A stretch of 64,000 nt of DNA from Candidatus Aenigmatarchaeota archaeon (GCA_041489155.1 JBGPQP010000005.1:17812-81811), one strand, 5' to 3'. Shown: positions 1 to 20,177, counted from the first letter of the stretch. Notes: generated by a model from the sequence alone, not told the origin. A program made the numbers and translations.

Positions 1-136
1 TTATCTGGACCCTTTTCTTTTCGTCAGCGGCCTTGTCGTAGGCTTCCTGCTTTTTTGTCTTTTTGCCCTTGCCTGCCTTTGCCGCTTCCTTTGCTTCCGT
101 CTTCGCTGCCTTTTTGTCCGCCTGCGTCTTGGCCAT
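1..136 (-). CDS. Partial CDS running off the window; Lys/Ala-rich N-terminus (MAKTQADKKAAKTEAKEAAKAGKGKK...)
   Basis: ATG at 136, open to the window edge; TATA-like TTATAAA about 25 nt upstream; not in ORF track because truncated. Confidence 0.6.
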   Translation of the reverse strand, partial: MAKTQADKKAAKTEAKEAAKAGKGKKTKKQEAYDKAADEKKRVQI

Positions 137-197: not shown

Positions 198-2675
198 ATG
201 CAACCCAAACAGGCGGCAGTCGCAGTTTCGAGCTTCTTCGCCTGCTATCTCATATTCTCTCTGTCGTTCGTTTTGGCGTACGAGATCGGGGATTTTTTTA
301 ACGGCGGCAAGGTCAGACTGGCGCTGGAGCCGGTAATGAAGATTGTTGACGACATCAAGCCGCTTACCTGCGCCTCTTCGGGTTCGTTTATTCTGCATGC
401 CTATGTCGAAAACATACCAGAATTCGACATAACGGGCATAGACGCATCGGTTTACGAAGCGTCGAACGATGTCTATTACAACGTGACTTCAGCGGTCTCC
501 TGTGGTCCGAGAACCGGCCTCATAAGCAATCAGGAATTCGCCTGCACGGTCAACGTCAAGGAGTTGCTGACCAAGCTGCCGAAATGCCCGATGGAAATGA
601 TGGAGAACGCTTTCTACCTGACCGCTGAAATCGCTTACGGCAAAAACAAGGAGAAGGTGACCGAGTCGAAAGTCCTGACGCTCATAAGGCAGGGCATAAA
701 GCCGGAGATGGAAATAGACTTCGCTGTTTCCCGTCCAGCCTACCCAGTGCCTGAAATAAACTGCGTGACTGGCAGCGAGATAGACGTGCCAGTGGTTATA
801 CGCAATGCAGAAGCCATGTTCGGCAGCATAGGCTGGTCGTATGTTGCAGGCAACATAACTTCCTCGCAGATAAGCTGCAATAAAATAATGAGCAGGGAGG
901 ACGAGGGAAGGGAGGACATATACCTCTGCATCCTGACTGTCCCCAGCACGCTGTTCCCGAAATGCGAGGACGGCACAGAAGTCACGGTCACTATAGGCGC
1001 GAGAACCAGCGAGCATAACCTCAACAGCAGCTTCACGACCGTTCTTGTTTCCGAAGAGCTCCAGCTCGCCCTGAAAGTTTCCGGCATGAAAAAGGTCGAC
1101 TGCCAGATAATAGATGAGGAAGGCACCTGCGTACCCAAAGAGCCGCAGCGCAACGTCACCGTCACCATCACGGGCAACGCGCCTGAAAGGCTGAAGGTCT
1201 TCGAGAGCAAGTACAAGCTCGGCAGCGAGAAGGAGAGCACGGTTTCCTGCAGGCAGATAAGCACCAACAGATACGAATGCGCGACTTTCGTGACCATCGA
1301 CAAGCTGCCCGTCCCTGCAAGCGTAGACGAGACTACAAATGCCTCAAGGGACCTTAGCGTCACATTCGAGGTCAAGTATCTGAATTACTACAAGAGCATA
1401 ACCTCCTCGACGGATGTTACCATGGAGGGCAAGGCGCTGGACGAGCTGATAAACACGATGAAGACACTAGACGAGGAAAATAAGTTTCTGAAGGCCCTTG
1501 AAAAACTTGTAACGGCGCTCAACAATGCGATAAAAGTTGTAGACTTCGTAAGCAAATGCTGCACGTTCCCAAGCATGATAAACCAGTTGGGGCAAAAGGT
1601 AATAGGCAAGGGTGCGACCAAAAAAACCCTCAGTGAATTCGTAAAGGATTTTGTTGAAAACAAACTGGAAGAAAAACTGCTCAAGTATTTAGGTTACGAT
1701 GTTGCCCTCAAAAAAACATTTGGCACCTATGCAAAGAAGATTTTCGAGTATTTTGCCAAGGATTTCCTGAAGAAGCTCGTTCTGGACACCATTAAACAGA
1801 TAGGCGTCGATAGCATCTGGTGCATAGCTTTGGGCGGGTCAAAGGTAATTGAAGAGCAGCAAAAGAATCTTGACAAGTTCGAGAAAGGCGAAATAAATTC
1901 AATGAATGTGCCGCAGAATTTCGGAGACTACGTGTGGGAGATGATTAAGGCCAACGCGCCGAATTGTTTTAAACAGTCCTTCTGGAACCAGTTCAAAGAC
2001 ACCACCAAGTTACTTGCATACCTTTGCATACTCGTGGGCGCTATTGTCACGTACTTCATTCCCGTTGCCATGAGTCTGATATGCAACTACTTGTCAACTG
2101 GCGCAGGAGTAATCAGCCTCGTGCTAAACGTAGCAGTGATGCTCATCTCGGTGATGACCGCATGGGATGCCTACCAACGCGTGCACAAGGCAGTCGCCCT
2201 CGCGACGGAGAGAATAAACCTGCAGACCAAGGCCAGCAACATCATGCAGGAATACGCAACTGACCTCCAGAACACCATGCAGAACTTGCTCATGAGCCAG
2301 GCGGCTGCGGCGATATTCACCGAGGCTTTCAATCCCCCGATGGAAACAACAAAACTCATATTTTATTCAGACAGGACTGGCGTCTTGGGGCAGGGCGATG
2401 ACATCTGCACCGGGGATGAGATAACCATAGAGTACAATTTCGACAAGCTCAACCAGACGAGCGGCTTCACTTCGCAGTTGGCCATGACCAATTCGCATTC
2501 GAAGACCCTGCGCTTCGACGCCCTTAACGGCACGTACGGGCCATACCAGACGGACAAGCTGCTCGGCACTGATCCCGCGAACGACCCTTCCGAGGATTAC
2601 ACCTTCACCCTCTCCTACGGGAGCAGGAGGCTGGATTACAAGCTGCATTATGTTAATCATGAATGCGTCACGTAA
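198..2675 (+). CDS. Exported/membrane protein, 825 aa: Cys-paired beta-rich domains plus helical/hydrophobic C-terminal region; paralog of the C-terminal half of the giant protein
   Basis: Hydrophobic N-terminal signal; paired Cys; colinear motifs shared with 6573..13562 (INC, WSY, CQI..D.G.C, KYL, NFGDY). Confidence 0.8.
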   Translation: MQPKQAAVAVSSFFACYLIFSLSFVLAYEIGDFFNGGKVRLALEPVMKIVDDIKPLTCASSGSFILHAYVENIPEFDITGIDASVYEASNDVYYNVTSAVSCGPRTGLISNQEFACTVNVKELLTKLPKCPMEMMENAFYLTAEIAYGKNKEKVTESKVLTLIRQGIKPEMEIDFAVSRPAYPVPEINCVTGSEIDVPVVIRNAEAMFGSIGWSYVAGNITSSQISCNKIMSREDEGREDIYLCILTVPSTLFPKCEDGTEVTVTIGARTSEHNLNSSFTTVLVSEELQLALKVSGMKKVDCQIIDEEGTCVPKEPQRNVTVTITGNAPERLKVFESKYKLGSEKESTVSCRQISTNRYECATFVTIDKLPVPASVDETTNASRDLSVTFEVKYLNYYKSITSSTDVTMEGKALDELINTMKTLDEENKFLKALEKLVTALNNAIKVVDFVSKCCTFPSMINQLGQKVIGKGATKKTLSEFVKDFVENKLEEKLLKYLGYDVALKKTFGTYAKKIFEYFAKDFLKKLVLDTIKQIGVDSIWCIALGGSKVIEEQQKNLDKFEKGEINSMNVPQNFGDYVWEMIKANAPNCFKQSFWNQFKDTTKLLAYLCILVGAIVTYFIPVAMSLICNYLSTGAGVISLVLNVAVMLISVMTAWDAYQRVHKAVALATERINLQTKASNIMQEYATDLQNTMQNLLMSQAAAAIFTEAFNPPMETTKLIFYSDRTGVLGQGDDICTGDEITIEYNFDKLNQTSGFTSQLAMTNSHSKTLRFDALNGTYGPYQTDKLLGTDPANDPSEDYTFTLSYGSRRLDYKLHYVNHECVT

Positions 2676-2686
2676 ACGATGATAGA

Positions 2687-4597
2687 ATGAAATTGAATAT
2701 CCGAAAGAAAGGGCAGGTGGAATTTGTCGTAATTGCAGCCCTGATAATCATAGCCATCGCTGTCATGATCCTTGCCTCGAGGCAGTTTGTCATCAATCCG
2801 CCTGTCACGACCGGCATACCTGACGAGGCGAAGACGATAAAAGACGCCGTAATGAATCTCATAAAGGCAGGCACCAATGACAGGCTGGCACTGATATACA
2901 ATCAGGGCGGCACCTTCAGACCAGGTTACTCCGTCAAATTCGGCATGTTCGACACGGAGGTGTGGCTGGCATGCGGCAACCAGAAAATCCCTGACGTCTC
3001 GCAGGAGATCGGCGCTGCCATACTCGATTACCTCAGGGAAAACCTGCAAGACGAGATGAATTTCTACGGTAAAAACACGCAGTTCGATTTCAGCAAATCA
3101 AGATACGAAGTGGAGATTTTCAAGGACAAGATAAGCATCCGCATATATCTGCCGACGCTGGTTGAAGCGTATGAAATGCCGCAACCATATGAAGTCATTG
3201 TCGACAGCAAACTTTATGATGTGCTCGAGCTTTCGAAAAACCTTGTAAAAGACGCGAGCGAAACCAGCTTCTTCGAGATGGTAACCCTGGCGACCATGAT
3301 TAATACCAATCCCGAAAATAAAACTTGGACGCCGCTCGCGGGCGCAAGGGCAGGTTGCGGCAACTACCTTTTCAGAACAAGGACACAGCTGCTGTCCGGC
3401 ATAAAGGAGGTTGCCAGATACACGGCTTCTCATATCGTCTGGAACAACAGGGGTCTAAGGCTCGCAGAAAACCCGTTCTATCCGCTGACCGGAGTGGGCG
3501 GCAAAGATTATTCCGACATGGATGTTATGTTTTCCTATCCCACTTCATGGGACTCAGAAATGGACAAATATTTCACTTTTTCACCGGATCCGCTGCGCGT
3601 CATACCAAAACCGCCCATACCCCTCGTACCCTTCTGCATGAGTTCCTATGCCGTGAGTTACAACCTGCGTTATCCGATAATCGTCATGGTGCATGACTCG
3701 ATCCTCAATCAATGGCTCAAATTCGGGGTCATGGTCAACATAGAAGACACCGCTCCTGGAAACTGCTCCGTGCAGATGGGCAATGCGTCGCAGTACGCAA
3801 AGCTTTGCATAAGCAACGCCAAATGCGATGCGGAAATAAAGGTCAAGAACACCACAGGAGACCTGATGCAGGGCGTTGACGTCGGCTTCTACATATGCGA
3901 CCTAGGCACCACGAACGAAAAAGGCGTGGTTGAAGGCAAAATTCCGTGCATGATAAGCGAGTTGAGCGCCTTCAAACCCGGTTACAAGAGCTATGGCGAT
4001 TTGGTATCCTCGGATGATTTGAAGGACAAGACTGTGAAGATGACAAGGGTCGCCGAGAACATATCGATATATATGAAAGGCCTTAAAACATACGCCTCAG
4101 GCGACGGTTTGGACGGCACTGACGATGACGGCAAATACGCTAACTATGCCGTTGTTGACAAGGCCAAAGACATAGCTGACCTAGGTTATGATGAATTCGA
4201 CCTGAACCTGACAACCACCATCGCCTTCTCGCCGGCCGACCCGAACTATTTTACAGGTGAGGACACGCCGCTTGTTATACTGAACTATGACAACAACTGG
4301 AATGCGGTGTCAGCGGTGAATGTTTCCGGTCTGCTGCCGATAGGATATAACATATTAGTTGCTGTAAACACGGAAGACGGTGACGACAGCCTGCCGGTTG
4401 GCTTCCTCAATACATCATACACGCTACAGGAAGGCCAGACATCGCTTTACTTTTACATACCAGTCGTGGTCAAGGGGGACGGCCTTTTTGATCTGGATGC
4501 ACCCGGCATCGACGCCAGCGAGGCCGACCAGCTGACAAACCTTGCCATAAGCACCTGCGGCGCGGCAATCAGCAAGGACGAAATCACAACTTGCTGA
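2687..4597 (+). CDS. Large class III signal-peptide (type IV pilin-like) protein, ~636 aa
   Basis: RKKG/QVEFVVIAALIIIAIAV N-terminus; start adjusted to ATG 2687. Confidence 0.8.
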   Translation: MKLNIRKKGQVEFVVIAALIIIAIAVMILASRQFVINPPVTTGIPDEAKTIKDAVMNLIKAGTNDRLALIYNQGGTFRPGYSVKFGMFDTEVWLACGNQKIPDVSQEIGAAILDYLRENLQDEMNFYGKNTQFDFSKSRYEVEIFKDKISIRIYLPTLVEAYEMPQPYEVIVDSKLYDVLELSKNLVKDASETSFFEMVTLATMINTNPENKTWTPLAGARAGCGNYLFRTRTQLLSGIKEVARYTASHIVWNNRGLRLAENPFYPLTGVGGKDYSDMDVMFSYPTSWDSEMDKYFTFSPDPLRVIPKPPIPLVPFCMSSYAVSYNLRYPIIVMVHDSILNQWLKFGVMVNIEDTAPGNCSVQMGNASQYAKLCISNAKCDAEIKVKNTTGDLMQGVDVGFYICDLGTTNEKGVVEGKIPCMISELSAFKPGYKSYGDLVSSDDLKDKTVKMTRVAENISIYMKGLKTYASGDGLDGTDDDGKYANYAVVDKAKDIADLGYDEFDLNLTTTIAFSPADPNYFTGEDTPLVILNYDNNWNAVSAVNVSGLLPIGYNILVAVNTEDGDDSLPVGFLNTSYTLQEGQTSLYFYIPVVVKGDGLFDLDAPGIDASEADQLTNLAISTCGAAISKDEITTC

Positions 4598-4659
4598 TTT
4601 TGCTCATTTTTAGACATATTGAAACGCCAAAAAGACATGCCTGCGCCTGTGTGGTACAT

Positions 4660-4673
4660 GAAAAGGTTATAAG
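4660..4673 (+). promoter_or_regulatory. BRE-TATA promoter for the second pilin-like paralog and probably the giant gene
   Basis: GAAAAGG-TTATAA 24-29 nt upstream of ATG 4696. Confidence 0.5.
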
Positions 4674-4695
4674 TGATACTATGAAATATTATTAT

Positions 4696-6570
4696 ATGTA
4701 TTCCCGCAGGAAGGGACAGGTGGAATTCATAGTCGTCGCTGCCCTGATTGTCATCGGCATAGCCGTCGTCATTCTCGCCTCAAGGCAGGCCATTATCACC
4801 CCTCCTGTTGTGACAGGTGTAACCGAGGAAGCCAAGACCGTGAGGGATTCTGTAAGCAATCTGATAAGGGCGGGCGTGAAAGAAAACCTGCAGATATTGT
4901 ATAACCAGGGAGGCCTGCTTGATGTCGGGCCTTCGATAAGGTTCGGCATGTTTGAGACGTCTATCTGGTCTTTCTGCGGCGAAACAGACATACCTGATGT
5001 TTCCAGCGAACTTAACAACGGCCTTCTCGCCTATCTCAACCAGAACCTTCAGGACAATCTCGACAGCAACGATGAGATGGAATTCTCTGGCGTAAAGGCC
5101 AAGTTCGATTTCAGCGAAGTGAGCTCCAAAGTTGAGATAATAAAGGACAGAATCGTGGTCAGGGTCAACCTTCCGACGGAAATTGGCACATACCAGGTTC
5201 AGCAGCCATACGAGGTTTCGGTGAACTCGAAACTCTATGATATCCTGGATTTCTCAAATAATTTCGTAAGCGAAGTGGGCAAGGACAAGTATTTCGAACT
5301 CTGCACGATACAAAACATGCAGCATTCAGATGCGCCGATGATGGGCGTGATTTCCGACTGCGGCAAAATCGTGCACATGACAAGGGCGCAGACCCTGCCC
5401 GTCGCTAAGGGTGTCGCGAATTATGTCATTTCTCACACCGTGTGGAACAAGCAGCCTGTGTATATGGAAAGAAATCCGCCCTGTCCGCCGATCAACAGCG
5501 TTGGCGACAAGATATATCCCGGCCTGGAGGTCGCCTTTGCCTACCCGCCGTCATGGGATTCCGAGATGGACAGGTACTTCAACATGTATCCTGACCCGGC
5601 GATATTCGTCCCGCAGCCCATAGGCTCGCTCATACCCGTCTGCATGACTCCTTACAGCATTTTCTACTCCTTCCGCTATCCTGTCATTGTTATGGTCGAG
5701 GACTCGACGCTCGACCAGTGGTTCAAGCTTGCCATGATGATCGAGATAGAGAACAACGAGCCGGGCTCATGCTTCGGCTATCTGCAGGAGGAATCAGAGT
5801 ACAACAACAGATGCAAAGAAGATGTAACCTGCGATGCCACCATAAGGGTAAAGGATTCCGAAGGTAAACCTGTGGAAGGCGTCGATGTGTTGTTTTCAAT
5901 ATGCAACATAGGCACTACAGACAGCGAAGGAAAAGTCGAGAGCAAAATACCCTGCATAATCAGCAACCTGAGGGTATACAAGGAAGGCTACAGGAGCTAC
6001 GGGGAAAGCATGCTGTCCTTCGGAGACATGGTAGACAAGAACATAACGCTGCAGAAAACCGCAGGCTCGGTGACAATCCATCTGAAGGGCCTCAGGACCA
6101 TGGCCTATGGCAGCGAGGGCGGAGGCAAATTCAGCAGTTACCAAGTCACTGAAAGCGCGAAGGATATCAGCGAGCTTAACGACAAGCTTCTGGTGCTCGT
6201 CTCTTTCACGCCGGCGCAGCCTGACCAGATGTCAAACATGGATCTCGAAATATACGCTACAAACCTCGAGGAAGAAACATACACTGATACGATAGCTTCC
6301 GAAGGCCTCCAGCCCATAAAATACAATGTCAGCGTGAGCGCCGAGGACTTCAGCAATGAAACCTCGACTTCGGTTGTAAGCCTGCTGAGCACCTCATTCG
6401 AGCTGAAGGAAGGGGAGAAGGACATTTATATTTATCTGCCGGTCGTGCTCAAGACGGAGACGGGTGATATAGAAGCTCCTGGCATAGACGTCTCGGAAAC
6501 AGGCCAGCTGACTGATGTTGCTGTAAGCCGCTGCGGCTCGGCGGTAAGCGCTACAGAAAGGTCGTGTTGA
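4696..6570 (+). CDS. Large class III signal-peptide (type IV pilin-like) protein, ~624 aa; tandem paralog of 2687..4597
   Basis: RRKG/QVEFIVVAALIVIGIAV; full-length similarity to the upstream gene (YNQGG, FGMF, SWDSEMD, KIPC, APGID); start adjusted to ATG 4696. Confidence 0.8.
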   Translation: MYSRRKGQVEFIVVAALIVIGIAVVILASRQAIITPPVVTGVTEEAKTVRDSVSNLIRAGVKENLQILYNQGGLLDVGPSIRFGMFETSIWSFCGETDIPDVSSELNNGLLAYLNQNLQDNLDSNDEMEFSGVKAKFDFSEVSSKVEIIKDRIVVRVNLPTEIGTYQVQQPYEVSVNSKLYDILDFSNNFVSEVGKDKYFELCTIQNMQHSDAPMMGVISDCGKIVHMTRAQTLPVAKGVANYVISHTVWNKQPVYMERNPPCPPINSVGDKIYPGLEVAFAYPPSWDSEMDRYFNMYPDPAIFVPQPIGSLIPVCMTPYSIFYSFRYPVIVMVEDSTLDQWFKLAMMIEIENNEPGSCFGYLQEESEYNNRCKEDVTCDATIRVKDSEGKPVEGVDVLFSICNIGTTDSEGKVESKIPCIISNLRVYKEGYRSYGESMLSFGDMVDKNITLQKTAGSVTIHLKGLRTMAYGSEGGGKFSSYQVTESAKDISELNDKLLVLVSFTPAQPDQMSNMDLEIYATNLEEETYTDTIASEGLQPIKYNVSVSAEDFSNETSTSVVSLLSTSFELKEGEKDIYIYLPVVLKTETGDIEAPGIDVSETGQLTDVAVSRCGSAVSATERSC

Positions 6571-6572
6571 AT

Positions 6573-9500
6573 ATGAGAATAAAGAATTGGCAGTTATTGG
6601 CGCTCCAGATTATAGCTGTATTTTGTTCTTATCTTATATGGAGTACCACGGGCGCCACAGCGCTCGAGATAAGGATATTCACTTCCGGCGGGCAGCAGTC
6701 GACGACGACCATACCGAAGTTCTCCGACATGATACAGAAGGAGCTGTCCTACCCGTACCAGCAGAACTACCAGTATTTGGAGATGAAGCTCTCGAGCAAG
6801 AGTGCCTCTTATGTCATAAAGAAGATTTATCTCTTCAGATGCAAGGACCTGGACCCGGTCAGCTGCATAGAGAAAGGAGTTAATCCTGTCATATCTGTCA
6901 ATCCGGGCAGCTCGAGTCTGGTTTTCGACGAGACCTACAAATGGGACGACGTCAGCTCGAACAACGTGGGCAACTTCCTGGCCATGGTGAAGCTCGACAT
7001 CGCAGGCAAGGAAGTATGGACGAGCAGCTGGGACAAGGTAACGAAGACAGGCATAAGGAATTTCTACAATGAAAACAACGACGTCGACAGGCTTGACCTT
7101 TATATCAAGGGTGCTTCAGCGGATGTCGCGACGAGCTATATTGAGAACTATTATGCCATTCCCTCCGACCAGATGAGCCGCTCCATTTTCGAGAGCGTCG
7201 GAGGCTCGGGCGTGACGAAGCTTTACGATCTTTCCGGCAACAAAGACAGGCTTGACCCATCCGGCACGGGGATCCCTTCCCTGAAATTCAGCAGTATGTC
7301 CGGCAATATTTTCAACAAGAGCACGGACACGTGGGACTTCATAATCGCTGCTGATGGCAAGGCCGGCAACCCTGTCGTTTTCTACTCGACTGAGGCCGGT
7401 CCTCCTATCACGGGCGGCGCTAAGCTTGTCATTGATGACTGGTCGCCGCAGATAGTCACGTGCTACAGCGGCGAGGTAATCAAAGCGACCATGCATGCGG
7501 AGAACGCCAGTAGCATCGGCTACTTCCAGTCTTATTATTACACTATTGATGGCGTGAAGGCTAACGAGGGCACGATGACCTGTTCGCTCGTGAGCCCGAA
7601 TGCCAGCATCTATTCCTATCAGTGCTCGATCCCCGTCGAAACCTTCCCGGCGTGCACTGCCCCGGGCACATCGACGATAAAGGTATTTTTCAATTACCAG
7701 GGAGGCGTCCAGCTCTCCGGCAGTTTTCCCGTCACGCTTAAAGCGCCGAGTCCATCGATAAGCGTGACTTCTCTTTCCCCAACGCCATTCGACTGCGGCA
7801 TAGACAACGAGATAACGGCGAAACTGCAGGTTTCAAACCCCGGAGAAGGCGCACCAGAGATGGAGTACACTTTTGACGGAGAAAATTTCAACACCCTGAC
7901 CTGCACGGGCTCCGGCGGCAGCTACACCTGCACCGTTCCCGAGAGCAGGATATGCGAGCTTGTCCAGGAGAGCCTTTCGCTCGTGTTCAAATTCACTTAC
8001 GGCGAAACGGAGGTGCTTTCCCTGCCTTCCACGATACTTGTCACCTTCCCGCCTCCCAGTGTGGGCATTGACACGGTAACGCCGCAGGCGATCGACGCGG
8101 ACAAGACCACTGCCGTGAGCGTCCTGCTGCACGTGAATTACCCTGACTTCATCACGTACAACGAAAACAATTTCAACTACAAATATCTTGACAAGCCTTT
8201 CGCGCCCGCCACGTGCACGCTCGAGACTTCCTATTCCAACATAAAGTATTACCGCTGCAATGTCGCTCTTGCAATTCCCAGCGGCAGACAGGGTGTCGAA
8301 ACTCTTGCGTTCAGGCTGGACGGCTTCGCTGAAGGCAAGCCCAAGCAATTGACAGCCAATGCCTTCTACGAAATCATGCAGCCCCCGCCCGAGCCGAGGT
8401 TCACGATAATCTCCACGTCCTCGCCGGTCGACTGCACTGCCGACAATTTCCTGACGGTAAATATCAAGGCAGAGAACGTCGACATGACTACGCTGCACGA
8501 AAAGGTGGAGTACACCACGAACAGTTCCGGCTATTACTATGCGCCGTGCACCGCCAGCGCAAATATCATGACATGCTCGTTGCCTGCAAAGGACTTGTGC
8601 GACCAGATGCAAAACGTTCTTGGGATACAGTTCAGGCATATGGTCGTAACCGCAGACAAGAACAAGACCTATTACAGCAATTCCCAGAAGGTATATTTCA
8701 ATTTGCCAGAGCCGCACATGCAGGTTTACGCGGTGAGTCCGGATTCGTTGCCGGCGGGGGCGAAGACCGCTGCGACGGTCAGCCTTTACCTGCAGTATCC
8801 TAACATGGTCGGTAGCAGCCCGGCATTCCTGTACACTTATTTAGGCAAAATCAACCAGAAGATGACGTGCACGAAAGTCTCCTCGACCGCCAACCGCGAC
8901 TTCTACGACTGCGCGAACACGAACTTCGAGATTCCTGCCGACTACTCGGAAAGCGATGTGCCGGTTGTCTTCTCGGTGCAGGGCACGACCATCTCCTTCC
9001 CGTTCACTATACCCGTGGTAGCGCTGAGCAAGATAAATCCCTGGCTAGAAATCGTTGCCTCGACCCCGTCCCGCATAGAAGTCGTCCAGGGCAACGAGAC
9101 TTCAGCTTCATTCTACGTGACGATACACAATGCCGCCGAAAGCGAGCTTAAGCATCAGGCAACAGTCATAACGAACAGCATGATAGCCAGCGGCACCTGC
9201 AAGGAGGCGGACGTGGTGTATGACTTCAACTGCGATGTCAAGATAAAGGCATCCAAGACGACGAATGTCGGCGCTAATACAGCCAACCTCACCCTGAGGG
9301 TGGAGGGCAAGAAGACATATGATGTGACGAACTCGACCACTGTTTACGTCCTCGGCGAGCAGGCGAGAGTCGACATACAAAGCGCCTCGCCGGAGACGCT
9401 TTACTGCGAGGGCAACAAGCAGCAGAACCCGGACGCCGTCAAGATCACAGCCAACGCGAAGAACGTCGCGAGTTTCACGGTCCTTGAGGAGCAGATAAGC

Positions 9501-12500
9501 TTCAATGAGCTGACCATAGACCACACCGCCAAATACTGCTCCCAGCAGGCGCAGACCATCACCTGCAATATTCCGACAGACAAGCTCTTTGAAAAGGTGA
9601 CCTGCGGCCAAGACGAGCTTGCGCCTGGCCAGGGTTCGAAGTATTATCCGCTTACCCTGACATTCCTTGTCAGGGCGGGCAACGAGCAGCTGACGATTTC
9701 AGGCACGAAGGACATATCCGTCTCAGCGAGACCGCTGGAGCCCTACCTGGACATTGTTGACAACGACATCTCAGGTGGAACGCTTCAGAACCCGATAAAC
9801 TGCCTCGGTTCCAAGTCGATAAAGCTCGGCGACAGCGGCTACGTCAGGATAATGTACGCCGACCTGCTGCACCCCGAGCCCAAGGAAGACGACCTCGTGT
9901 GGTCCTACAAGCTTGAGGCTCAGGACGACAAGGGCAAACTGACCCAGGGCACGGGCGTGTCGCCTGAAGCGAACGCGACAGTTTGCAAATTCATTACCTA
10001 TCAAAAAGTCGGGACCCATCGCATAGAAGACTATGAATGCTCCCTTTACGTGACCAGCAAGATGTTCCAGAGATGCGAGATGGGCGAAGGCACGATAAAG
10101 CTTTACGCTTCTTCCGGCACGGGTAAGAAGGCCGAGGGAGTCTTCGATATCTATGTTATAAGGGACGAGAGCCCGTACCAGATAGAGATGGAAATCCTTG
10201 GCACGCCGCCGAAGGACATAAACTGCCAGATACAGACAGACGACGGGCAGTGCACTCTCGCTTCCTATTCGCAGCTCAACGTCAGCCTGAGGATTTACAA
10301 CAGGAATGCTGACGTCGGCATCCCGGACCTGCAGGTTTACGATTTCGACGCCAACCTCACAGGCAAAACCGTCAACGCCAACCTGAGGTCGCTGGGCAAC
10401 TGCCAGAAGACTTCGCAGGAGGCCAACAAGTATATCTGCCCCTTCGAGATAGGCCCGACCATAAAGCTGCCGGACACGCCGGAATACAAGATAAACAAGG
10501 AGAACCCCGACACGCAGGAGTTCCCACCCATTTCCCTCGGCGCAGTGCAGGTCGCCGTTTACATAAAATACCTTGACAACAAGGTGCAGAAGACGCTGAC
10601 CGCGAACGACGGCACCATAACCATCCACCCGAAGCTGCTCGACAGCTACATCGACTACCTGAAGAGGCTGAAGGAGGCGCAGGACGCCTACAACAAGACG
10701 AAGGCTATCATGGTCACTGCGATAAGGTTCCTTTCCCTGTGCGCGACCTGCGTGATGGTCAACAAGTTCATGAAGGAGATATTTGGCGATGCTCCGAGCA
10801 TATGCAACAGCGACAATGACTGCACGAAAAACGACCCGAATGCCAAGTGCGTGGGCAACCAGTGCATGGGGACCACAGGAGGTCAAAACAGCACTCAGAA
10901 CCAAAATTCTGCATCTGCGTTGAAGACACAATGCGAAAATTGCATAAATGGCGGCGGATGCTGGTGCAAAAATGACAACAAATGCGGCAACACTGTCGGT
11001 TCTAACTGCGTGCAGCAAAGCCCGGCGCCATTTCTTATTTGCACTGCTATGTCTTGCGGTTCATATTATACGGCCGCTAATTCCCCGTCCGACTACCAGC
11101 CCGAGACCAGCGGAGCGAAACTAGCTGGTTCAGCTGTCGCAGCCGATTTCGCCGGTGAGAGCGGAGACGAAGGATTGTATCAGCCTGAGACGAGTACGCT
11201 AAACTTTGCATCATCAACCAGCCCCAAAGGAGATTGTGAGCGAACTGGACCCAACCCAGCTAATGGTTGTACAGTTTCATTAGAAGTGGTGATGAATAAA
11301 CCTTTCGCTGGCGATTATTTTGGTGTATATGCCCGAGCTAAATGCGACAAAATGGAAGAGGTTTCCGCACCTTTGATAAAAATAACCGATAAAAAATCAG
11401 GCACAGTCATTGTTGATGCAACTCCAAGTTCTAAATGTAGAGGCCCATGGGGCAGTAAAGACTATGAGTGCATGGTTAAGGTCAACTACCCCAAGTCCGG
11501 TGAACAGACGTTGGAAGCACAACTTTATGCTTATGAAAAAGACCAATTGTTTGGCCTAGTTACCATGCAAGAAGAAATTTATAAATGCGAAGGCGTAAAC
11601 ACGAGACTTACATTTAATGTTTTCGAGTCGGTCGATTGCAACACGTATGCGCAGAAAGTTGCAAAATCAAATGTTAAGATCTATGGCTACTGCGCCTCGA
11701 ATGACGATCAGTGCAACAATGTTTGTGCACAAAAAGGAAAAGAGGCTACTGCATCTTGGGCATGGCCACCAGACGGAAACAAATTAAAGGAATTTACAGA
11801 ACAAAATCTACCTTGTGGCGATCAAGCAGCATGTTGCGCCTGCAAGGACAAGGAGCCCGAAACCTTCGGCTCCTGCGCCGCTCCCTGCGGCAGCGAAAAA
11901 TGCTATGACAGCACGAAGGACAAATGCCCGGAAGGCAAGGAGTTCAAGGATGACTGGTGCTCCGGAGGGGCGAACATCAAATGCTGCGTTCCAACGGGAA
12001 CGCCTAACAAAAGCGGAGACGCTACGAACTCGCCGCCCCAGTGCAAGCCGCCGTGCAATAACGTCAATTCCGGCCAAGAATGCAGATGCGAAGGCTACTG
12101 TTTGTGCACTGATAGCAAAGGCGTGAAAACTTACATAGCCAAGGGCGTGAAGTGCGACGAAAATGCAGCTCCGAATGCAGCTTTACCCGCAGTAACAGGA
12201 AACGCCCCCGGAAGTGCAGGAGCAGCCGCGCCTGCGGCGCTCGACCTGACCAGCATAAAGACCCAGTTTGACAATTTTGGAGATTACTTCAGCTCAGGCA
12301 ACTGGTGGAAAGTTGTCATAGGTGCCCTGGGGATAGCACTGCTCATCCTGCTTGTCGCTACTAAACTATTCAAGTGGTTTGAGGAAAAGGAAGGAGAAAG
12401 CGAATACACCTCGGCGCTTAAATGGGGCATTAAATGGGGCATAGTATGCGGCGCGGCAGCGCCGCTCATCGAGGCAGTCTTCCCGAAGGAGCAGAAAGGC

Positions 12501-13562
12501 ACGGCAGGCGACATAAGCAACGTGCTGCAGAAGATTCTCAACTTCCCTTACAAGGTGTGCAAGTTCCTGATGGACAACCTCAGCACCATAATGATGCTGG
12601 TCAACATCTACTTCCAGTACCAAATGTTCGAGTATTGCATGAAGAACCTCGAGGACAGGGTTAGGCAGACGTATAACTATGGGGCGGCGTCTACCACCAG
12701 CGCAGCCGCCTCCCAAGCGTATAGCTCCGTCAACATGGCCAATGAGATGATGCAGTGCTTCAGCATGATGAAGGACATGACCTGCATGGCGATGGGAGCC
12801 TTCAACTCGCTTACCTTCTCGGGTCAGGGGATATTCAGCGACGGCGTTATGGAGGTAACACAGGATGGTTCAAGGAAGAAAACAGGCGACACCATTTACA
12901 ACGGGAAGCTGGAGGTAAGGGTTTCCGGCTTCTGCGAGAAGGTCGGCAGAAACGGCAAATACCAAGTCAGCATAACGGCGGTAATGGAGGACGGGACGAC
13001 CAAGGTATGTAAACCTGCTGATTATAACTGCGGCTCGAGCGGCGTCTATACTCCGTATTACACGCAGTCATATTATCCGTCGTATTATTCGTCATATGGT
13101 TCCAGCTATGGTTCCAGCAGCGGCTGCAGCCAATACATGAGCTATAACCCGAGCTCCGTCAACCAGAACATCCTTACCCTTTATATGCAGGACACCAACG
13201 ACTGGAACATCTGTGAAAGCGGAGGCACGATAAAGAAAGTGAGAATTGAGGGCCCGTGGGACCCGGTTGTGTTGAACTTCGCGAAGAAGGGAGGAACGAC
13301 GCCCACCACCAAAAAGAAATCCGGCGACACATGCGCAAATAATGTAGACTGTGAATCTGTCGTTTGTTGCTATACATCTTGGAATGACCTCACAATAACC
13401 GGTAAAAAAGTTTGCGTCAATGATCCGGTTGCATGTATATGCAAATATCCTGCCACTTCGGGCATTGGGTTATGTAAAGGGGAAGATTATAAAAATGCTA
13501 CTACGCCAACATGCGACGGAAAAGCGGAATGCCCGAACGAAAAGTATTATTGCTGCCGGTAG
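6573..13562 (+). CDS. Giant exported surface protein, ~2329 aa: repeated Cys-paired Ig-like domains, Cys-rich insert, hydrophobic helices, Tyr/Ser-rich segment, Cys-rich tail
   Basis: Signal peptide; ~100-aa repeats starting xSPxxxxC; TM-like WWKVVIGALGIALLILLVA; 7-kb uninterrupted ORF. Confidence 0.85.
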   Translation: MRIKNWQLLALQIIAVFCSYLIWSTTGATALEIRIFTSGGQQSTTTIPKFSDMIQKELSYPYQQNYQYLEMKLSSKSASYVIKKIYLFRCKDLDPVSCIEKGVNPVISVNPGSSSLVFDETYKWDDVSSNNVGNFLAMVKLDIAGKEVWTSSWDKVTKTGIRNFYNENNDVDRLDLYIKGASADVATSYIENYYAIPSDQMSRSIFESVGGSGVTKLYDLSGNKDRLDPSGTGIPSLKFSSMSGNIFNKSTDTWDFIIAADGKAGNPVVFYSTEAGPPITGGAKLVIDDWSPQIVTCYSGEVIKATMHAENASSIGYFQSYYYTIDGVKANEGTMTCSLVSPNASIYSYQCSIPVETFPACTAPGTSTIKVFFNYQGGVQLSGSFPVTLKAPSPSISVTSLSPTPFDCGIDNEITAKLQVSNPGEGAPEMEYTFDGENFNTLTCTGSGGSYTCTVPESRICELVQESLSLVFKFTYGETEVLSLPSTILVTFPPPSVGIDTVTPQAIDADKTTAVSVLLHVNYPDFITYNENNFNYKYLDKPFAPATCTLETSYSNIKYYRCNVALAIPSGRQGVETLAFRLDGFAEGKPKQLTANAFYEIMQPPPEPRFTIISTSSPVDCTADNFLTVNIKAENVDMTTLHEKVEYTTNSSGYYYAPCTASANIMTCSLPAKDLCDQMQNVLGIQFRHMVVTADKNKTYYSNSQKVYFNLPEPHMQVYAVSPDSLPAGAKTAATVSLYLQYPNMVGSSPAFLYTYLGKINQKMTCTKVSSTANRDFYDCANTNFEIPADYSESDVPVVFSVQGTTISFPFTIPVVALSKINPWLEIVASTPSRIEVVQGNETSASFYVTIHNAAESELKHQATVITNSMIASGTCKEADVVYDFNCDVKIKASKTTNVGANTANLTLRVEGKKTYDVTNSTTVYVLGEQARVDIQSASPETLYCEGNKQQNPDAVKITANAKNVASFTVLEEQISFNELTIDHTAKYCSQQAQTITCNIPTDKLFEKVTCGQDELAPGQGSKYYPLTLTFLVRAGNEQLTISGTKDISVSARPLEPYLDIVDNDISGGTLQNPINCLGSKSIKLGDSGYVRIMYADLLHPEPKEDDLVWSYKLEAQDDKGKLTQGTGVSPEANATVCKFITYQKVGTHRIEDYECSLYVTSKMFQRCEMGEGTIKLYASSGTGKKAEGVFDIYVIRDESPYQIEMEILGTPPKDINCQIQTDDGQCTLASYSQLNVSLRIYNRNADVGIPDLQVYDFDANLTGKTVNANLRSLGNCQKTSQEANKYICPFEIGPTIKLPDTPEYKINKENPDTQEFPPISLGAVQVAVYIKYLDNKVQKTLTANDGTITIHPKLLDSYIDYLKRLKEAQDAYNKTKAIMVTAIRFLSLCATCVMVNKFMKEIFGDAPSICNSDNDCTKNDPNAKCVGNQCMGTTGGQNSTQNQNSASALKTQCENCINGGGCWCKNDNKCGNTVGSNCVQQSPAPFLICTAMSCGSYYTAANSPSDYQPETSGAKLAGSAVAADFAGESGDEGLYQPETSTLNFASSTSPKGDCERTGPNPANGCTVSLEVVMNKPFAGDYFGVYARAKCDKMEEVSAPLIKITDKKSGTVIVDATPSSKCRGPWGSKDYECMVKVNYPKSGEQTLEAQLYAYEKDQLFGLVTMQEEIYKCEGVNTRLTFNVFESVDCNTYAQKVAKSNVKIYGYCASNDDQCNNVCAQKGKEATASWAWPPDGNKLKEFTEQNLPCGDQAACCACKDKEPETFGSCAAPCGSEKCYDSTKDKCPEGKEFKDDWCSGGANIKCCVPTGTPNKSGDATNSPPQCKPPCNNVNSGQECRCEGYCLCTDSKGVKTYIAKGVKCDENAAPNAALPAVTGNAPGSAGAAAPAALDLTSIKTQFDNFGDYFSSGNWWKVVIGALGIALLILLVATKLFKWFEEKEGESEYTSALKWGIKWGIVCGAAAPLIEAVFPKEQKGTAGDISNVLQKILNFPYKVCKFLMDNLSTIMMLVNIYFQYQMFEYCMKNLEDRVRQTYNYGAASTTSAAASQAYSSVNMANEMMQCFSMMKDMTCMAMGAFNSLTFSGQGIFSDGVMEVTQDGSRKKTGDTIYNGKLEVRVSGFCEKVGRNGKYQVSITAVMEDGTTKVCKPADYNCGSSGVYTPYYTQSYYPSYYSSYGSSYGSSSGCSQYMSYNPSSVNQNILTLYMQDTNDWNICESGGTIKKVRIEGPWDPVVLNFAKKGGTTPTTKKKSGDTCANNVDCESVVCCYTSWNDLTITGKKVCVNDPVACICKYPATSGIGLCKGEDYKNATTPTCDGKAECPNEKYYCCR

Positions 13563-15353: not shown

Positions 15354-16076
15354 ATGCCCAAAAAAGCAGATTTATCTTCACCTTTCAGGTCGTCGATGGA
15401 GAGGGTTTCCACAGGCATCCCGGGCCTCGACGATGAGATGGAAGGCGGTTTTGTAAAGGGCTCTGTCATTCTTGTGACAGGCGGAACAGGCACGGGCAAA
15501 ACGACTTTCTGCGGACAATATTTATGGGAAGGCCTGAAAAAAGGGGAAGCCGGCCTTTACATTTCTCTGGAGGAAGACCCCGAGGACATAAAGACCGATC
15601 TCAAGCGTTACGGCTTCGAGTTCGAGAAATACGAAAGGGAAGGGACATTCAAGCTCGTTTACCAGAACCCCTTCGAGGTTTCGGATTTGCCGTCGGCTGT
15701 TATAAACGCGATAAATTCGGTTAACGCGAAGCGGATAGTCATAGACCCTATTTCGATAATTGCGATGTATCTGAAAGACGCCGCCGTCATGAGGAAGCGG
15801 CTGTTCGAGCTCATACGCCTTCTCAAGAAAACGGGCGTTACGGCGGTCGTGACATCCGAAATCCTTGACAACGAGATAGGCGAGCGCGTCGGAGGCAGCC
15901 TGTCGAGGGACGGCGTCAGCGAGTTCGTGGCTGACGGTGTTATAGTTCTAAACCTGTTTGGCATAGGCGGGGGTATAACAAGATCAATACTGATAAGGAA
16001 AATGAGACGAACAAAGCACGGCATGGACATCTATCCGATAGAAATGGGCCCGAATGGCATCTACTTGAAAACATAG
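15354..16076 (+). CDS. KaiC/RAD55-like RecA-superfamily ATPase (single domain)
   Basis: STGIPGLD, Walker A GGTGTGKT, SLEE, RIVID, SEFVADGVI, KMRRTKH. Confidence 0.9.
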   Translation: MPKKADLSSPFRSSMERVSTGIPGLDDEMEGGFVKGSVILVTGGTGTGKTTFCGQYLWEGLKKGEAGLYISLEEDPEDIKTDLKRYGFEFEKYEREGTFKLVYQNPFEVSDLPSAVINAINSVNAKRIVIDPISIIAMYLKDAAVMRKRLFELIRLLKKTGVTAVVTSEILDNEIGERVGGSLSRDGVSEFVADGVIVLNLFGIGGGITRSILIRKMRRTKHGMDIYPIEMGPNGIYLKT

Positions 16077-16095
16077 ATTTCTTTTCAATTCGACA

Positions 16096-16608
16096 CTAAG
16101 AAACCTTTGCACAGAACTGGCAATACCTGTTCCCCTTTGCAATGCATGATACCTCTTGGCAGCAAACCCTTTTTCCGAAAAATTCAGTGAAAAACCCGCC
16201 TATCATGCCGGCCAGGATTTCATCGGCATTCTCTTTCTTGCCGAGTCTGACATACTCCGATGCGATGGGGGAGTTTTTGCAATTCACTACGACAGAGCAC
16301 TTATCGTTGCTTATTTCGATTATTTCCATGTCGCCGAAGCCCGATAAATTGATCATGTTGAGCCAGAATTTCATGCACTCGTCCTTTTCGGTCCCCATTT
16401 TTTTGGAATATTCAAAGATGCTCTTTGAGATATCCTCTCCGAATTTGTAAAGTACATCTAGTGAATTCTTGCTCTTAAGCTCTTCCCTGAGCTTCACAAA
16501 CGCCATCACTGGTCCAAGAAAAAAGTTTTTGTTGAAAATTTTGAATTCGCCGTTTCCCACGTCGACCGTTCTCGAGAACAGCAGTTTTTTGAAAAATGGT
16601 GATATCAT
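16096..16608 (-). CDS. V4R domain protein
   Basis: C-terminal EVSCIAKGNRYCQF and SGFG motif. Confidence 0.8.
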   Translation of the reverse strand: MISPFFKKLLFSRTVDVGNGEFKIFNKNFFLGPVMAFVKLREELKSKNSLDVLYKFGEDISKSIFEYSKKMGTEKDECMKFWLNMINLSGFGDMEIIEISNDKCSVVVNCKNSPIASEYVRLGKKENADEILAGMIGGFFTEFFGKRVCCQEVSCIAKGNRYCQFCAKVS

Positions 16609-16610
16609 AT

Positions 16611-17201
16611 TCAGTCATTAGTCAGCTTCAATACAAACTCGCAGAATTCGTCACCCTTCCCCTTGCATTTAGACTCCACCGATTCTATTTTTTTGCCGAG
16701 CAGCTTTGCGAAAAACGATTTGAACATGCCCAGTATAAAGAGGCATGACATTTCTTCAAAAACAGGCAGGCCGCAGCATTCGCCGCATTCCCTGAGCCTC
16801 AATATCACTTCATTGCCTTTGAAATCGCCAATTTCCAGAATGCCATAGCGGGAATTGAGCATGAACTTTTTGAACTCCCCTACTATTGTGTTACTTTCAA
16901 TGTCCTTTTTTGTCTTGGCTTTCCTGATATTCTCAAGATTTTTCGATGTTTCAGGGCACAACGGCGCATAATCGCAGTAGGCTTCACCCAAAAAATTGCC
17001 TATGAATTCACCGTTTTCCGTCATCTTCTTCCTGCATTCCTGACTTGTCAGTAAAAGAGGAACGCTCATCTGCGAAAAAATAACGTTAATCTCGTTACCC
17101 ATCTTTGGTCTCACGATGCTCATTTTGTCATGGACTATGTCGTAGTATTTCAGGAGCAAGGCGTCTCTGAAAGAATTTAGATCATCGTTTTCTTTGCCCA
17201 T
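16611..17201 (-). CDS. V4R domain protein
   Basis: ECGECC...SCLFILG...ESKCKGKGDEFCEF. Confidence 0.8.
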   Translation of the reverse strand: MGKENDDLNSFRDALLLKYYDIVHDKMSIVRPKMGNEINVIFSQMSVPLLLTSQECRKKMTENGEFIGNFLGEAYCDYAPLCPETSKNLENIRKAKTKKDIESNTIVGEFKKFMLNSRYGILEIGDFKGNEVILRLRECGECCGLPVFEEMSCLFILGMFKSFFAKLLGKKIESVESKCKGKGDEFCEFVLKLTND

Positions 17202-17202
17202 T

Positions 17203-17433
17203 TTATCCCATCCTGATTATCAGTCTCCAACTTCCATCTTCCTTCTTGACTTCTTCGACTTTTGCCCCTATTTTTTTTGCTATTTCCGGAATGCTTTTCA
17301 GGGCGTCGCAATCGGTGACTATGACTTCTAGTTCGATTCTTTTTATGCCTTTTTTCTTCAGTTCCCTGAGCTTATTGCTGACAGAAATGATAGGATAGGG
17401 ACAAACCTTTCCGCTTAAATCCAGAGTTTCCAT
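17203..17433 (-). CDS. tusA: TusA/SirA-family sulfur carrier
   Basis: LDLSGKVCPYP motif, ~76 aa. Confidence 0.85.
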   Translation of the reverse strand: METLDLSGKVCPYPIISVSNKLRELKKKGIKRIELEVIVTDCDALKSIPEIAKKIGAKVEEVKKEDGSWRLIIRMG

Positions 17434-17463
17434 GATTTTTATTTGTTGCAATCCCTATTTAAA

Positions 17464-19341
17464 TTAAAAGAACCAGCCTGCAATTTTTTCTGCAAATTTC
17501 GGATGCCTGACGGACCCGTCCCTTCCTTTATCCCTTCTGAAGTGTCTCTCAACGGTTTTATAACACCAAGGCTTTTCATAAGAACTCAGGCCGTTTTGAT
17601 GGTTGTACTCCCGAAAGGCCTCCTGAAAACCACGGAAGCCACTGCCATTACTTACATGTTCAGCGAAACCTATCGCAGACTCACTTAGCATTTTCCTCAT
17701 TTTTCTAACAGAGACTTTTCCGTTGATGCCAGGTAATTTATTTCCACCGAATATATGCCTTATATGGGCATTGTACTTGTCGGTTAGAACATCATTCTGT
17801 AAAGTTAACATTTCTCTGTACGATTGTGGATGTAGTTCTGATGGAAAGAACAGGTCGGGAGCGCGTTGATCAGCCTCCTTTATCAGGGCAGCCAGTTTTC
17901 TGCTTTTCGAATCATCTCTTTTCATGCCTCCGTAGTTTTTTGCAACAAAATTCACATTGTCCAGTATTTTTTCAACATCATCTTTCGTAGTGTCCCATCC
18001 GAGGCTTAACCTGGCGGTTCCTCTTATGTTTTCGCCGGTTATTTCTTTCAGCAGAGGATATGCGCAGTGGCAACCACTGCGCCCCTGTACCCTGTACCTA
18101 ACAGGTATGATTTTTCCTTCATATTTTCCATCAAGCAACATTGCCAGTTGGTCTGAGTGCATTTCGCCGATGTTTATGGAGAATGTCGGAACCCTGTCCT
18201 TTGGATTTCTTGGTCCGTACAATTTCAGGCCCGGTATGCTTCCAAGCCCTCTTACCATCTGCTCTGAAAGGGCCATTTCATGTTCCCTTACCCCCTCCAT
18301 GGCAATTCTCATGTACTTTCTCCTGTCGGTAGGGTTTTCAATCCTGCCTTTATGATCGTCGCCTGCGATTTTCTGGCCCATTTCAATCAGGAAATCGGTC
18401 ATTGCGCCAAGCCCTATGGCATTTCCTATGTCAGGCGTTCCGGCCTCGAACCTGTCTGGCACCGGGGCAAGGAAATAGCCGTCGGATTCTATATGCAACG
18501 GTGTGCCCCCGCCAATATCGGCAGGGCCCATTCTCTTGAGCAATTCCTTCCTTCCGTAAACTATGCCCACGTTTGGGGCAAACATTTTATGCGCAGACGC
18601 GACCCAGAAATCGCAATCCAGTTTTTTGACATCAACAGGCAAGTGCGGGGCGGCCTGTACGCCATCGACAATGACAACTGCCCCTTTCTCATGGGCCATT
18701 CTGTTTATCGTTCTTATATCGTCTATGGCTCCGGTAACGTTCGATACGTGTGTTACGGCCACGACTTTCGTGTTACCGTCTATGAGACTTTCTGCTTGGT
18801 TTAGGTCAGTGTCATAACCGGGTGTTATGCCTACCCATCTTAATTCATAGCCGTTCCTTCGTGCTTCGTCCATCAACGGCATAACATTTGAGCTGTGATT
18901 TATTTTTGAAAGAACAATGTTATCTTTGTCACTGCCATTTCCGTGTTTACTGTATTCTTCTTTGAACAAAGAATGGATTATCTGGTTCAAAGCCGCTGTT
19001 GCATTTTGCCCGACAAAAAGAATTTCACCTCTAGGATCGGCGCCGAAAAGATCAGCGACTTTCTCGTGCGCTTTGTCATATCTATCGCTGGCTTCCTGCG
19101 AACGTTGGTAAATGCCCCTGTGGACGTTTGCCTTTTTTATCGTGTTAAATTCGTCAACGGTTCTCTGTATGCGTTCCAGCATCGGTGTCGTTGCGGTGTG
19201 ATCACAATAAATATTGAGCCTGCCATTTTCCGTGTAGTTTAAGTTGCCGGACAATTCCGGTCTTACCATATCTGGTACGATGTCTGTATTGTATTTGTTC
19301 AGGCCAGCACTGCCACGTCCGACTTCCAAATTACTTGACAT
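17464..19341 (-). CDS. sufS: Cysteine desulfurase, SufS/CsdA (class II) type, with ~150-aa C-terminal extension
   Basis: ANVHRGIY, HVSNVTG, DGVQAAPH, PLP lysine SAHKM, FEAGTP, catalytic RSGCHCA. Confidence 0.85.
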   Translation of the reverse strand: MSSNLEVGRGSAGLNKYNTDIVPDMVRPELSGNLNYTENGRLNIYCDHTATTPMLERIQRTVDEFNTIKKANVHRGIYQRSQEASDRYDKAHEKVADLFGADPRGEILFVGQNATAALNQIIHSLFKEEYSKHGNGSDKDNIVLSKINHSSNVMPLMDEARRNGYELRWVGITPGYDTDLNQAESLIDGNTKVVAVTHVSNVTGAIDDIRTINRMAHEKGAVVIVDGVQAAPHLPVDVKKLDCDFWVASAHKMFAPNVGIVYGRKELLKRMGPADIGGGTPLHIESDGYFLAPVPDRFEAGTPDIGNAIGLGAMTDFLIEMGQKIAGDDHKGRIENPTDRRKYMRIAMEGVREHEMALSEQMVRGLGSIPGLKLYGPRNPKDRVPTFSINIGEMHSDQLAMLLDGKYEGKIIPVRYRVQGRSGCHCAYPLLKEITGENIRGTARLSLGWDTTKDDVEKILDNVNFVAKNYGGMKRDDSKSRKLAALIKEADQRAPDLFFPSELHPQSYREMLTLQNDVLTDKYNAHIRHIFGGNKLPGINGKVSVRKMRKMLSESAIGFAEHVSNGSGFRGFQEAFREYNHQNGLSSYEKPWCYKTVERHFRRDKGRDGSVRHPKFAEKIAGWFF

Positions 19342-19403
19342 TTTACCACTATTTAATAATAACATTTGGGTATTTAAATACCTTTCTGCCAGCTATCCGG
19401 ATG

Positions 19404-19811
19404 TTAGAACGTCATCGTGGTGTTTGCGTTTGTCGTTATCTCCAGGAACTCAGCCGCACCGACTTCCTTGTCCACGACTTCTATGAAATCGCTCATCTTC
19501 AGGCCGAATGCAGCCATAGTCGTCTTGCAGGCGTATATCTTTGCTCCCATCGATTTGGCCTGTTTTATCATTTCCTGTACAGGCGGTATGTTCATTTCCT
19601 TGAATCTTTGCGGAAGCATTTTTTCGTAGCTCTTGTAATCACTTCCCATCTTCAGGTCAGCGTTTTTCTTGATCGCATTTATCCCGAAGAACGAGAAGAA
19701 TATATGCGTCTTCATATTCATCGATGCCGCGGTCATGCCGAATATCATCGCTGAATACACCCTTTCTAACGTATCACCAGTTACGATGATTGCAACTGTT
19801 TTTGCCATCAC
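19404..19811 (-). CDS. DsrE/DsrF/DrsH-like sulfur-transfer protein
   Basis: FFSFFG, KIYACKTTM, VGAAEFL motifs. Confidence 0.85.
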   Translation of the reverse strand: MMAKTVAIIVTGDTLERVYSAMIFGMTAASMNMKTHIFFSFFGINAIKKNADLKMGSDYKSYEKMLPQRFKEMNIPPVQEMIKQAKSMGAKIYACKTTMAAFGLKMSDFIEVVDKEVGAAEFLEITTNANTTMTF

Positions 19812-19820
19812 ACATCCCTC

Positions 19821-20123: not shown

Positions 20124-20130
20124 ATTTAAA

Positions 20131-20177
20131 GAATATTCCAAAACCTATATAAATGTTTATTATGGAATATTCCAAAA
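20131..20177. promoter_or_regulatory. Putative operator: perfect 12-bp palindrome TGGAATATTCCA (20163-20174) and 13-bp direct repeat GAATATTCCAAAA (20131-20143, 20165-20177)
   Basis: Seen directly; flanks TATATAAA between the divergent regulator and cysK. Confidence 0.6.

Follow-up and report, generated by a model that had tools for sequence, protein, structure and literature searches.

What kind of surface structure is encoded by the four large genes that open a 64,000-nucleotide stretch of DNA from a Candidatus Aenigmatarchaeota archaeon (GCA_041489155.1 JBGPQP010000005.1:17812-81811; hereafter the window), and with what would it make contact? A preliminary description had presented them as a four-gene machine, in which two paralogous proteins flank two large pilin-like proteins, and had placed its source in a DPANN archaeon; it had proposed, speculatively, a hetero-oligomeric appendage or pilus-tip complex whose helical bundle brings translocators or fusogens to mind. 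We analysed the gene content, relatives, predicted folds and possible topology of the encoded proteins.

Gene content and conservation of the locus

The four open reading frames, all on the plus strand, are co-directional and abut or overlap at the start of the window. Gene A (198-2675) encodes 825 aa; a signal peptide and three Ig-like domains lead into a predicted stalk of four helices, which has six conserved cysteines, and the protein ends in a further Ig-like domain. Gene B (2663/2687-4597; 636-644 aa) has a class III (pilin-type) N-terminus followed by a large Cys-containing ectodomain, and gene C (4681-6570; 629 aa) is a tandem duplicate of B. Gene D (6573-13562; 2329 aa) encodes a signal peptide, an N-terminal domain, about nine predicted Ig-like repeats, a helical module, a terminal beta domain and a Cys-rich tail.

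A genome scan with narrow patterns only recovered 11 related loci, in records titled Aenigmarchaeota (6), uncultured archaeon (4) and Proteobacteria (1). One contig stops at A; in all 10 GTDB loci with downstream DNA (D being cut by a contig end in four, and D or A split in one each), the order is A, a single B-type gene, D. Co-occurrence of these genes is thus strict. However, no equivalent of C exists in any of these 10 loci, where B is single copy, and the conserved unit therefore consists of three genes, not the four first proposed, C being a duplicate. In the loci with split genes, D appears as two overlapping reading frames (locus L008, 14318-20025) or A as two reading frames (locus L011, 1354-3872), through either assembly error or a real break. 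The record titled Proteobacteria (WVXP01000214.1, locus L010) is probably mislabelled, as its trio and flanking genes match the archaeal loci.

The duplication itself can be placed approximately. B and C share 43% identity across 636 aligned columns. In a tree, each has as its partner one protein encoded on a 99,509-base contig; the branches are long (0.54 and 0.79) and nested among the single-copy orthologs. As far as seen in these sequences, the duplication is confined to this genome and one close relative.

The family is small. An A profile matched 32 clusters among 1.84 billion protein representatives, the distant relatives being 22-31% identical. The name Aenigmarchaeota is carried by 3 of 26 A matches, 4 of 18 D matches and 4 of 34 B matches, and one B match comes from Micrarchaeota. 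No A-family member named outside Aenigmarchaeota was seen in the narrow-pattern genome scan or among the named protein matches. Named relatives are thus almost all Aenigmarchaeota, in line with the DPANN source claimed. Judged by its sequences, the A-B-D trio is a real, conserved three-gene surface system of this lineage.

Housekeeping genes neighbour the trio in 9 of the 11 loci, and a divergently transcribed gene that weakly matches minimal nucleotidyltransferase models lies upstream of A, likewise in 9 of 11. In the window only its start is present (1-136, minus strand), and it probably belongs to the DPANN MNT-HEPN family described in PMC6393860. The flanks of the related loci end short of the positions that correspond to two blocks further downstream in the window, the pilus ATPase gene (see below) and a sulfur cluster (17203-21137; TusA, a cysteine desulfurase-like protein of 633 aa, DsrE and a PLP enzyme), the latter having a lower GC content of 42-48%.

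Several other features of the window were recorded. A KaiC-like ATPase gene faces two V4R-domain genes (15354-17201), and a second KaiC-like gene lies at 39745-40437. An orphan of 1136 aa (26878-30288, minus strand), which has no Pfam or NCBIfam match, combines N-terminal CxxC pairs and a Gly/Pro-rich linker with many hydrophobic helices and a C-terminal part that is long and rich in beta structure. A primase of 437 aa appears fused, with small- and large-subunit matches in one reading frame (34455-35768, plus strand). A pyrimidine operon (pyrB, pyrI, pyrD, pyrK, pyrC-like, pyrE-like and pyrF; 46522-52251, minus strand) is notable for a reduced DPANN genome; it is followed by genes for a CARDB surface protein, an ABC ATPase and two MacB/FtsX permeases (52302-56414, plus strand). 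A tRNA gene spanning 122 bases (41999-42120, minus strand) probably contains an intron, and an archaeal 16S rRNA gene occupies 62363-63922 (plus strand).

Paralogy and architecture of proteins A and D

The preliminary description had aligned A by eye, colinearly, with the second half of D. Profile comparison, with 26 A and 18 D sequences aligned, confirms the relationship: hhalign pairs A39-466 with D924-1405 at 99.74% probability (E 3.4e-27). BLASTP of the two proteins gives 23% identity over 265 aa (E 3e-6), and their local score of 111 was reached in 0 of 200 shuffles (mean 37). The C-terminal halves match at 94.3% (E 1e-7, against E 0.064 for the best of 20 column shuffles; 93-97% overall), and their global comparison reaches 96.7% (E 4.8e-10), with C610 and C629 of A falling on C1957 and C1996 of D; the helical part alone aligns weakly (14.6%). 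In a search of the 1.84 billion proteins, the A profile returned D-family proteins unprompted (best E 4e-14). Together, the BLASTP, hhalign and unprompted profile matches identify A, at the sequence level, as a short paralog of the second half of D, from D924 onward.

All 14 motifs quoted in favour of the alignment are present in colinear order. Colinearity holds for this order of motifs but is interrupted by a variable Cys-rich insert in D, 559 aa long here. We reject one supposedly homologous motif, NFGDY, as coincidental, because a single one of 38 A rows and a single one of 20 D rows contain it, in each case the window's own protein. The model and fold matches of A, together with the profile comparison of A and D, bear out the proposal of exported Ig-chain paralogs with signal peptides. 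No domain common to B and either A or D was detectable.

In the AlphaFold model of full-length A (mean pLDDT 70.5), a signal helix precedes three Ig-like domains, after which come a helical region and a small beta domain. The three Ig-like beta-sandwiches (residues 40-415, positions 315..1442; block pLDDT 71-90) carry conserved N-glycosylation sequons and are paralogous to D 924-1355. The helical stalk (residues 420-712, positions 1455..2333) is sequon-poor and is the least conserved part of A. It opens with a CC motif at 454-455 and a hypervariable segment; C542 and C590 follow, and a long helix then runs back. The C-terminal Ig-like domain (residues 719-825, positions 2352..2672; block pLDDT 91-97) has the C737/C823 pair and conserved sequons. 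When residues 408-825 were refolded with 43 sequences, long helices were predicted at about 420-469, 503-562, 575-620 and 622-711, followed by a confident terminal Ig domain, the stalk itself being modelled with moderate quality only (pTM 0.45, block pLDDT 43-85).

Six stalk cysteines (454, 455, 542, 590, 610 and 629) are near-invariant, and two more lie in the terminal Ig domain. Two of the six, C610 and C629, flank the turn of a hydrophobic helix-turn-helix (residues 602-655, positions 2001..2162); they are kept in 40 of 42 and 42 of 42 proteins, respectively, with a spacing of 13-22 residues in 40 relatives, and the turn carries TGG in 9 of 43 A rows. The hydrophobic segments flanking this turn, near residue 621, vary in number: at KD ≥1.6, 39 relatives comprise 3 with none, 8 with one, 21 with two and 7 with at least three. 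By the threshold that we used, the two segments equal real membrane helices in their propensity to insert in 23 of 42 and 22 of 43 relatives. Stalk helices 1 and 2 are not hydrophobic. The hydrophobic helices of A are thus internal, as had been noted, and the protein has no C-terminal anchor.

In D, about nine repeats span residues 283-1355 (7419..10637; boundaries by eye, fold predicted from sequence). Six of these match each other at 81-99.9%, and the last three match the Ig domains of A. After a CxxC motif comes the hypervariable Cys-rich insert (10788..12266), with 559 aa and 40 cysteines between C1393 and G1952 here, against 84-262 aa and 0-24 cysteines in 17 relatives; six cysteines lie in the region of D that matches A. 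The strongest hydrophobic helix (residues 1914-1932, 12312..12368) passes the threshold of an estimated insertion energy in 17 of 18 proteins and is followed family-wide by an acidic loop (net charge −9 to 0 in 18 of 18). A second helix exceeds that threshold in 0 of 18, a weak negative because the same estimate found only 4 helices in a Na+/H+ exchanger. The hairpin C1957-C1996, equivalent to that of A, is amphipathic rather than hydrophobic. A beta domain paralogous to the terminal Ig domain of A and a variable Cys-rich tail complete the protein (12828..13559), and one D relative carries C-terminal FN3/CARDB domains.

The distribution of sequons bears on the topology of both proteins. Relative to shuffled expectation, sequons are enriched in A 95-400 (1.60-fold) and A 709-820 (1.72-fold) and depleted in the helical core of A (0.41-fold). 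The helical module of D has 2 against 16 expected and its terminal domain 2 against 27 (20 of 20 below expectation), whereas 19 cytoplasmic control proteins gave a ratio of 1.07; the relatives counted are kin rather than independent tests, and the significance of these values is therefore overstated. The N-terminal domain of D (0.73) and the N-terminal half of B (0.56) are also somewhat sequon-poor. Sequons and cysteines together suggest that both ends of A and of D lie outside the cell. Avoidance of sequons in the C-terminal half of D, set against the cytoplasmic controls, suggests that this half is exported and kept free of glycan. By the positive-inside rule, cytoplasmic loops are expected to be positive, and the acidic loop of D runs against this.

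Sequence conservation points in the same outward direction. Identity is 45-66% in the Ig parts of A and 27-41% in its stalk, and 44-62% in the Ig parts of D and 33-35% in its helical parts, with the helical part as the indel hotspot. An anchored adhesin is usually most variable at its distal Ig end. This reversal favours an outward-facing helical end, and the variable, sequon-poor character of that end suggests the same, although poor identity is often seen in hydrophobic helices anyway, which weakens the argument.

Pilin-like proteins and resemblance to known systems

The N-terminus of B reads RKKG/QVEF followed by a hydrophobic helix, and KG/QVE plus a hydrophobic helix is present in both B and C. 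The class III pattern generally consists of a basic residue and G or A at the cleavage site, with a hydrophobic helix of about 20 residues behind it; KG/QxE or KA/QxE occurs in 33 of 34 B-family proteins, the remaining one being a partial sequence, which upholds the pilin-type N-termini of the first description. No pilin family model matched the B family. Weak matches to Big_1 (6 of 12) and CarboxypepD_reg (5 of 12) and a weak Ig-like segment were found, and two distant relatives of 1015-1123 aa (P0103 and P0104), one from Micrarchaeota, contain a vWA domain. Judged by language-model features, proteins resembling B exist in Nanobdellota and Woesearchaeota (score 0.96), which is no more than a lead.

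A type IV pilus locus lies 7.6 kb and eleven genes downstream of the trio (21198-25983, plus strand). It comprises a gene for a PilB3-type ATPase, two TadC/T2SSF genes and a pair of small genes for class III pilin-like proteins, and is a candidate for the assembly machinery of B and C. A scan of 54 reading frames of the window revealed no prepilin peptidase. In Nanobdellati, pilins are scattered while ATPase and platform genes are clustered (PMC13705601).

Scans of Pfam, NCBIfam, PHROGs and PADLOC returned no family that names A, B or D, PHROGs giving only scattered matches at E 0.001-0.1, and profile searches of PDB sequences gave 0, 0 and 4 chance rows. Full-length A retrieved only generic tandem-Ig proteins in fold searches. 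With A408-825, no match was obtained by phage tblastn, no usable match in the Atlas search and none at E 0.001 or better in Foldseek-PDB; BFVD gave one uninformative match (E 7e-4), and an IZUMO1 match at E 0.05 in Foldseek-PDB was taken as noise. The best VIA match of this segment was the four-pass PRPH2 (Z 8.1, rmsd 5.7, 152 aligned), a level that common arrangements also reach, followed by Ig domains and designed bundles at Z ≤7.5. We reject kinship with tetraspanins, as this Z is under the noise level for bundles and A helices 1 and 2 are not hydrophobic. No pore-forming toxin, translocator or fusogen was among the listed fold matches of A408-825; the model reached a pTM of only 0.45, so that their absence leaves room for such kinship. 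The hydrophobic hairpin, the cysteines, the scarcity of sequons and the reversed conservation point towards it, and towards a hetero-oligomer, only indirectly.

Among known systems, archaeal type IV filament minor pilins with large adhesins (PMC4858521, PMC13705601) offer a close parallel: in both, a large class III protein prone to tandem duplication is encoded with large, Cys-rich, secreted multi-Ig proteins, while the ATPase and two platform genes lie elsewhere. The trio differs in having no Pfam or NCBIfam pilin or adhesin model match, in the predicted disulfide-braced helical stalk and hydrophobic hairpin between the Ig domains of the partners, and in that these partners are paralogs whose genes stand, in constant order, on either side of the pilin-like gene. 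The DPANN CCP loci of Hamm et al. 2024 (PMC11291902), which include Aenigmarchaeota, encode helical proteins proposed for host interaction and are linked to type IV pilus genes; CCP genes adjoin the ATPase and TadC and have been likened to reovirus sigma-1. A and D are instead Ig-chain proteins in a separate operon 7.6 kb from the pilus locus, features that set them apart on the CCP descriptions. The trio was rejected as a CCP locus, since it is not adjacent to ATPase/TadC and, in other genomes, is flanked by housekeeping genes.

Adhesins with Ig repeats and S-layer proteins (for example PDB 5irb, 4e9l, 7ptp, 8qox) share tandem Ig-like beta-sandwiches with A at Z 7-8.5, but these matches are generic (5-16% identity) and cover only its Ig parts; Pfam, NCBIfam and PDB gave no sequence match of the trio to S-layer proteins or solved structures. 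Long helices with a hydrophobic hairpin, and paired components, are features that A and D have in common with helical membrane-inserting proteins (type III translocators, two-component pores of the ClyA/YaxAB type, class I fusogens), yet their module sits between Ig domains, follows Sec-type export and contains six cysteines. Type III translocators moreover need a type III context, whereas A is exported by a signal peptide in an archaeon, and no translocator HMM (SseC/IpaB/YopB) appeared among the 25 listed of the 37 families that 43 proteins of the A family matched with E values as high as 5. Class I viral-type fusogens are homotrimeric coiled coils with a C-terminal anchor, which A lacks. 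Fusexins (Fsx1/HAP2, class II) have a beta-rich three-domain ectodomain and a C-terminal membrane anchor; A was rejected as one on its architecture, three Ig domains, helical stalk and Ig domain, with internal hydrophobic helices and no C-terminal anchor.

The accessible text of the literature, including PMC6393860, PMC11329633, PMC8407114 and PMC9258230, contains no description of the trio, which supplements could list. Castelle 2021 (PMC8204110) reports an unannotated Aenigmarchaeota module 128 of 37 families; among 14 of these none has the length of the trio proteins, and the rest may include them.

Possible roles in contact with another cell

We tentatively favour, at a little under an even chance, a reading in which A, B (or B and C) and D form a pilin-anchored cell-envelope complex through which the cell touches another one, in all likelihood its host. 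Once cleaved at the class III site, B would be retained through its hydrophobic N-terminal helix, its base lying either in the membrane or in a type IV pilus as a minor or tip pilin. A and D would be exported through ordinary signal peptides, glycosylated and disulfide-bonded, and their conserved Ig chains may serve as scaffold and spacer docked on B. The paralogous four-helix stalks would pack together and point outward, presenting the hypervariable Cys-rich recognition module beside hydrophobic helices that may grip, or dip into, the target surface.

As the main rival reading, the same hydrophobic helices could instead cross the cell's own membrane, A twice and D once or twice, making the helical part a stalk and leaving the Ig chains as distal adhesin or S-layer-support arms, a possible but somewhat doubtful arrangement that fits the A data well and the D data less so. 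A two-pass anchor would accommodate the insertion-prone segments of A (23 of 42 and 22 of 43) equally well, two such segments being present in 21 of 39 relatives and at least three in 7, and a two-pass hairpin predicts the sequons at both termini; the 17 of 18 D helices over the insertion threshold and the four-pass PRPH2 as top VIA match for the stalk (Z 8.1, within the range of common arrangements) lean the same way, and Cys-rich anchored S-layer-like proteins are known in archaeal pilus loci (PMC4858521). Yet segments at KD ≥1.6 are missing altogether from 3 of 39 A relatives, while 8 have one only, and the spacing of the near-invariant C610 and C629 (40 of 42 and 42 of 42) can be as short as 13 residues. 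If D crossed the membrane just once, seven conserved cysteines, the terminal beta domain and the FN3/CARDB domains of one relative would end up in the cytoplasm, the acidic loop after its helix is unfavourable, and the supposedly distal Ig arms are the conserved part.

Entry of the A and D hairpins into the host membrane on contact, opening a conduit or fusing the cells from a pilin-like base, would make the pair a two-component translocon, pore or fusogen. Hydrophobic hairpins with a small-residue turn resemble those of type III translocators, and the Cys-bracketed hairpin of A has such a turn (TGG in 9 of 43 rows); the two paralogous helical modules are always co-encoded and strongly avoid sequons. 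Cytoplasmic bridges to hosts have been seen in Nanobdellota, in accounts that, as far as accessible, do not name the constituent proteins (PMC11420986, 10.64898/2026.06.04.730037), but the imaged bridges come from other lineages, and the A family is small (32 clusters), with none named outside Aenigmarchaeota. As the A hairpin is weakly hydrophobic or charge-interrupted in several relatives, that of D (C1957-C1996) is amphipathic, and high variability is unexpected for a pore-lining element, we judge insertion rather improbable. A further reading is that A and D are secreted as a two-component toxin or archaeocin, directed against competitors or lysing the host, in which B would play an accessory part. 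The signal peptides, the pairing of hydrophobic helical modules and the presence of a variable region would suit this, and a host-lysing DPANN lifestyle is documented (PMC11291902). Such a role seems very unlikely given the stable chromosomal site beside housekeeping genes (9 of 11 loci), the absence of a small immunity-like gene within the trio and the highly conserved long Ig chains.

Published accounts, as far as accessible, do not identify the proteins by which DPANN archaea hold on to their hosts or, in some lineages, build cytoplasmic bridges to them. The trio is conserved, lineage-restricted and takes up about 10-13 kb of a small genome, and its proposed anatomy, with a pilin-like base, Ig spacers that stay constant and a hydrophobic end that varies, lends itself to testing. 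Even if it serves adhesion only, it is a concrete candidate for host recognition in Aenigmarchaeota. Should it prove a true membrane inserter, it would represent a new kind of translocon or fusogen, with disulfide-latched hairpins borne on a giant pilin, and would supply a named genetic candidate for DPANN host penetration, in which the hypervariable Cys-rich insert would set the host range.
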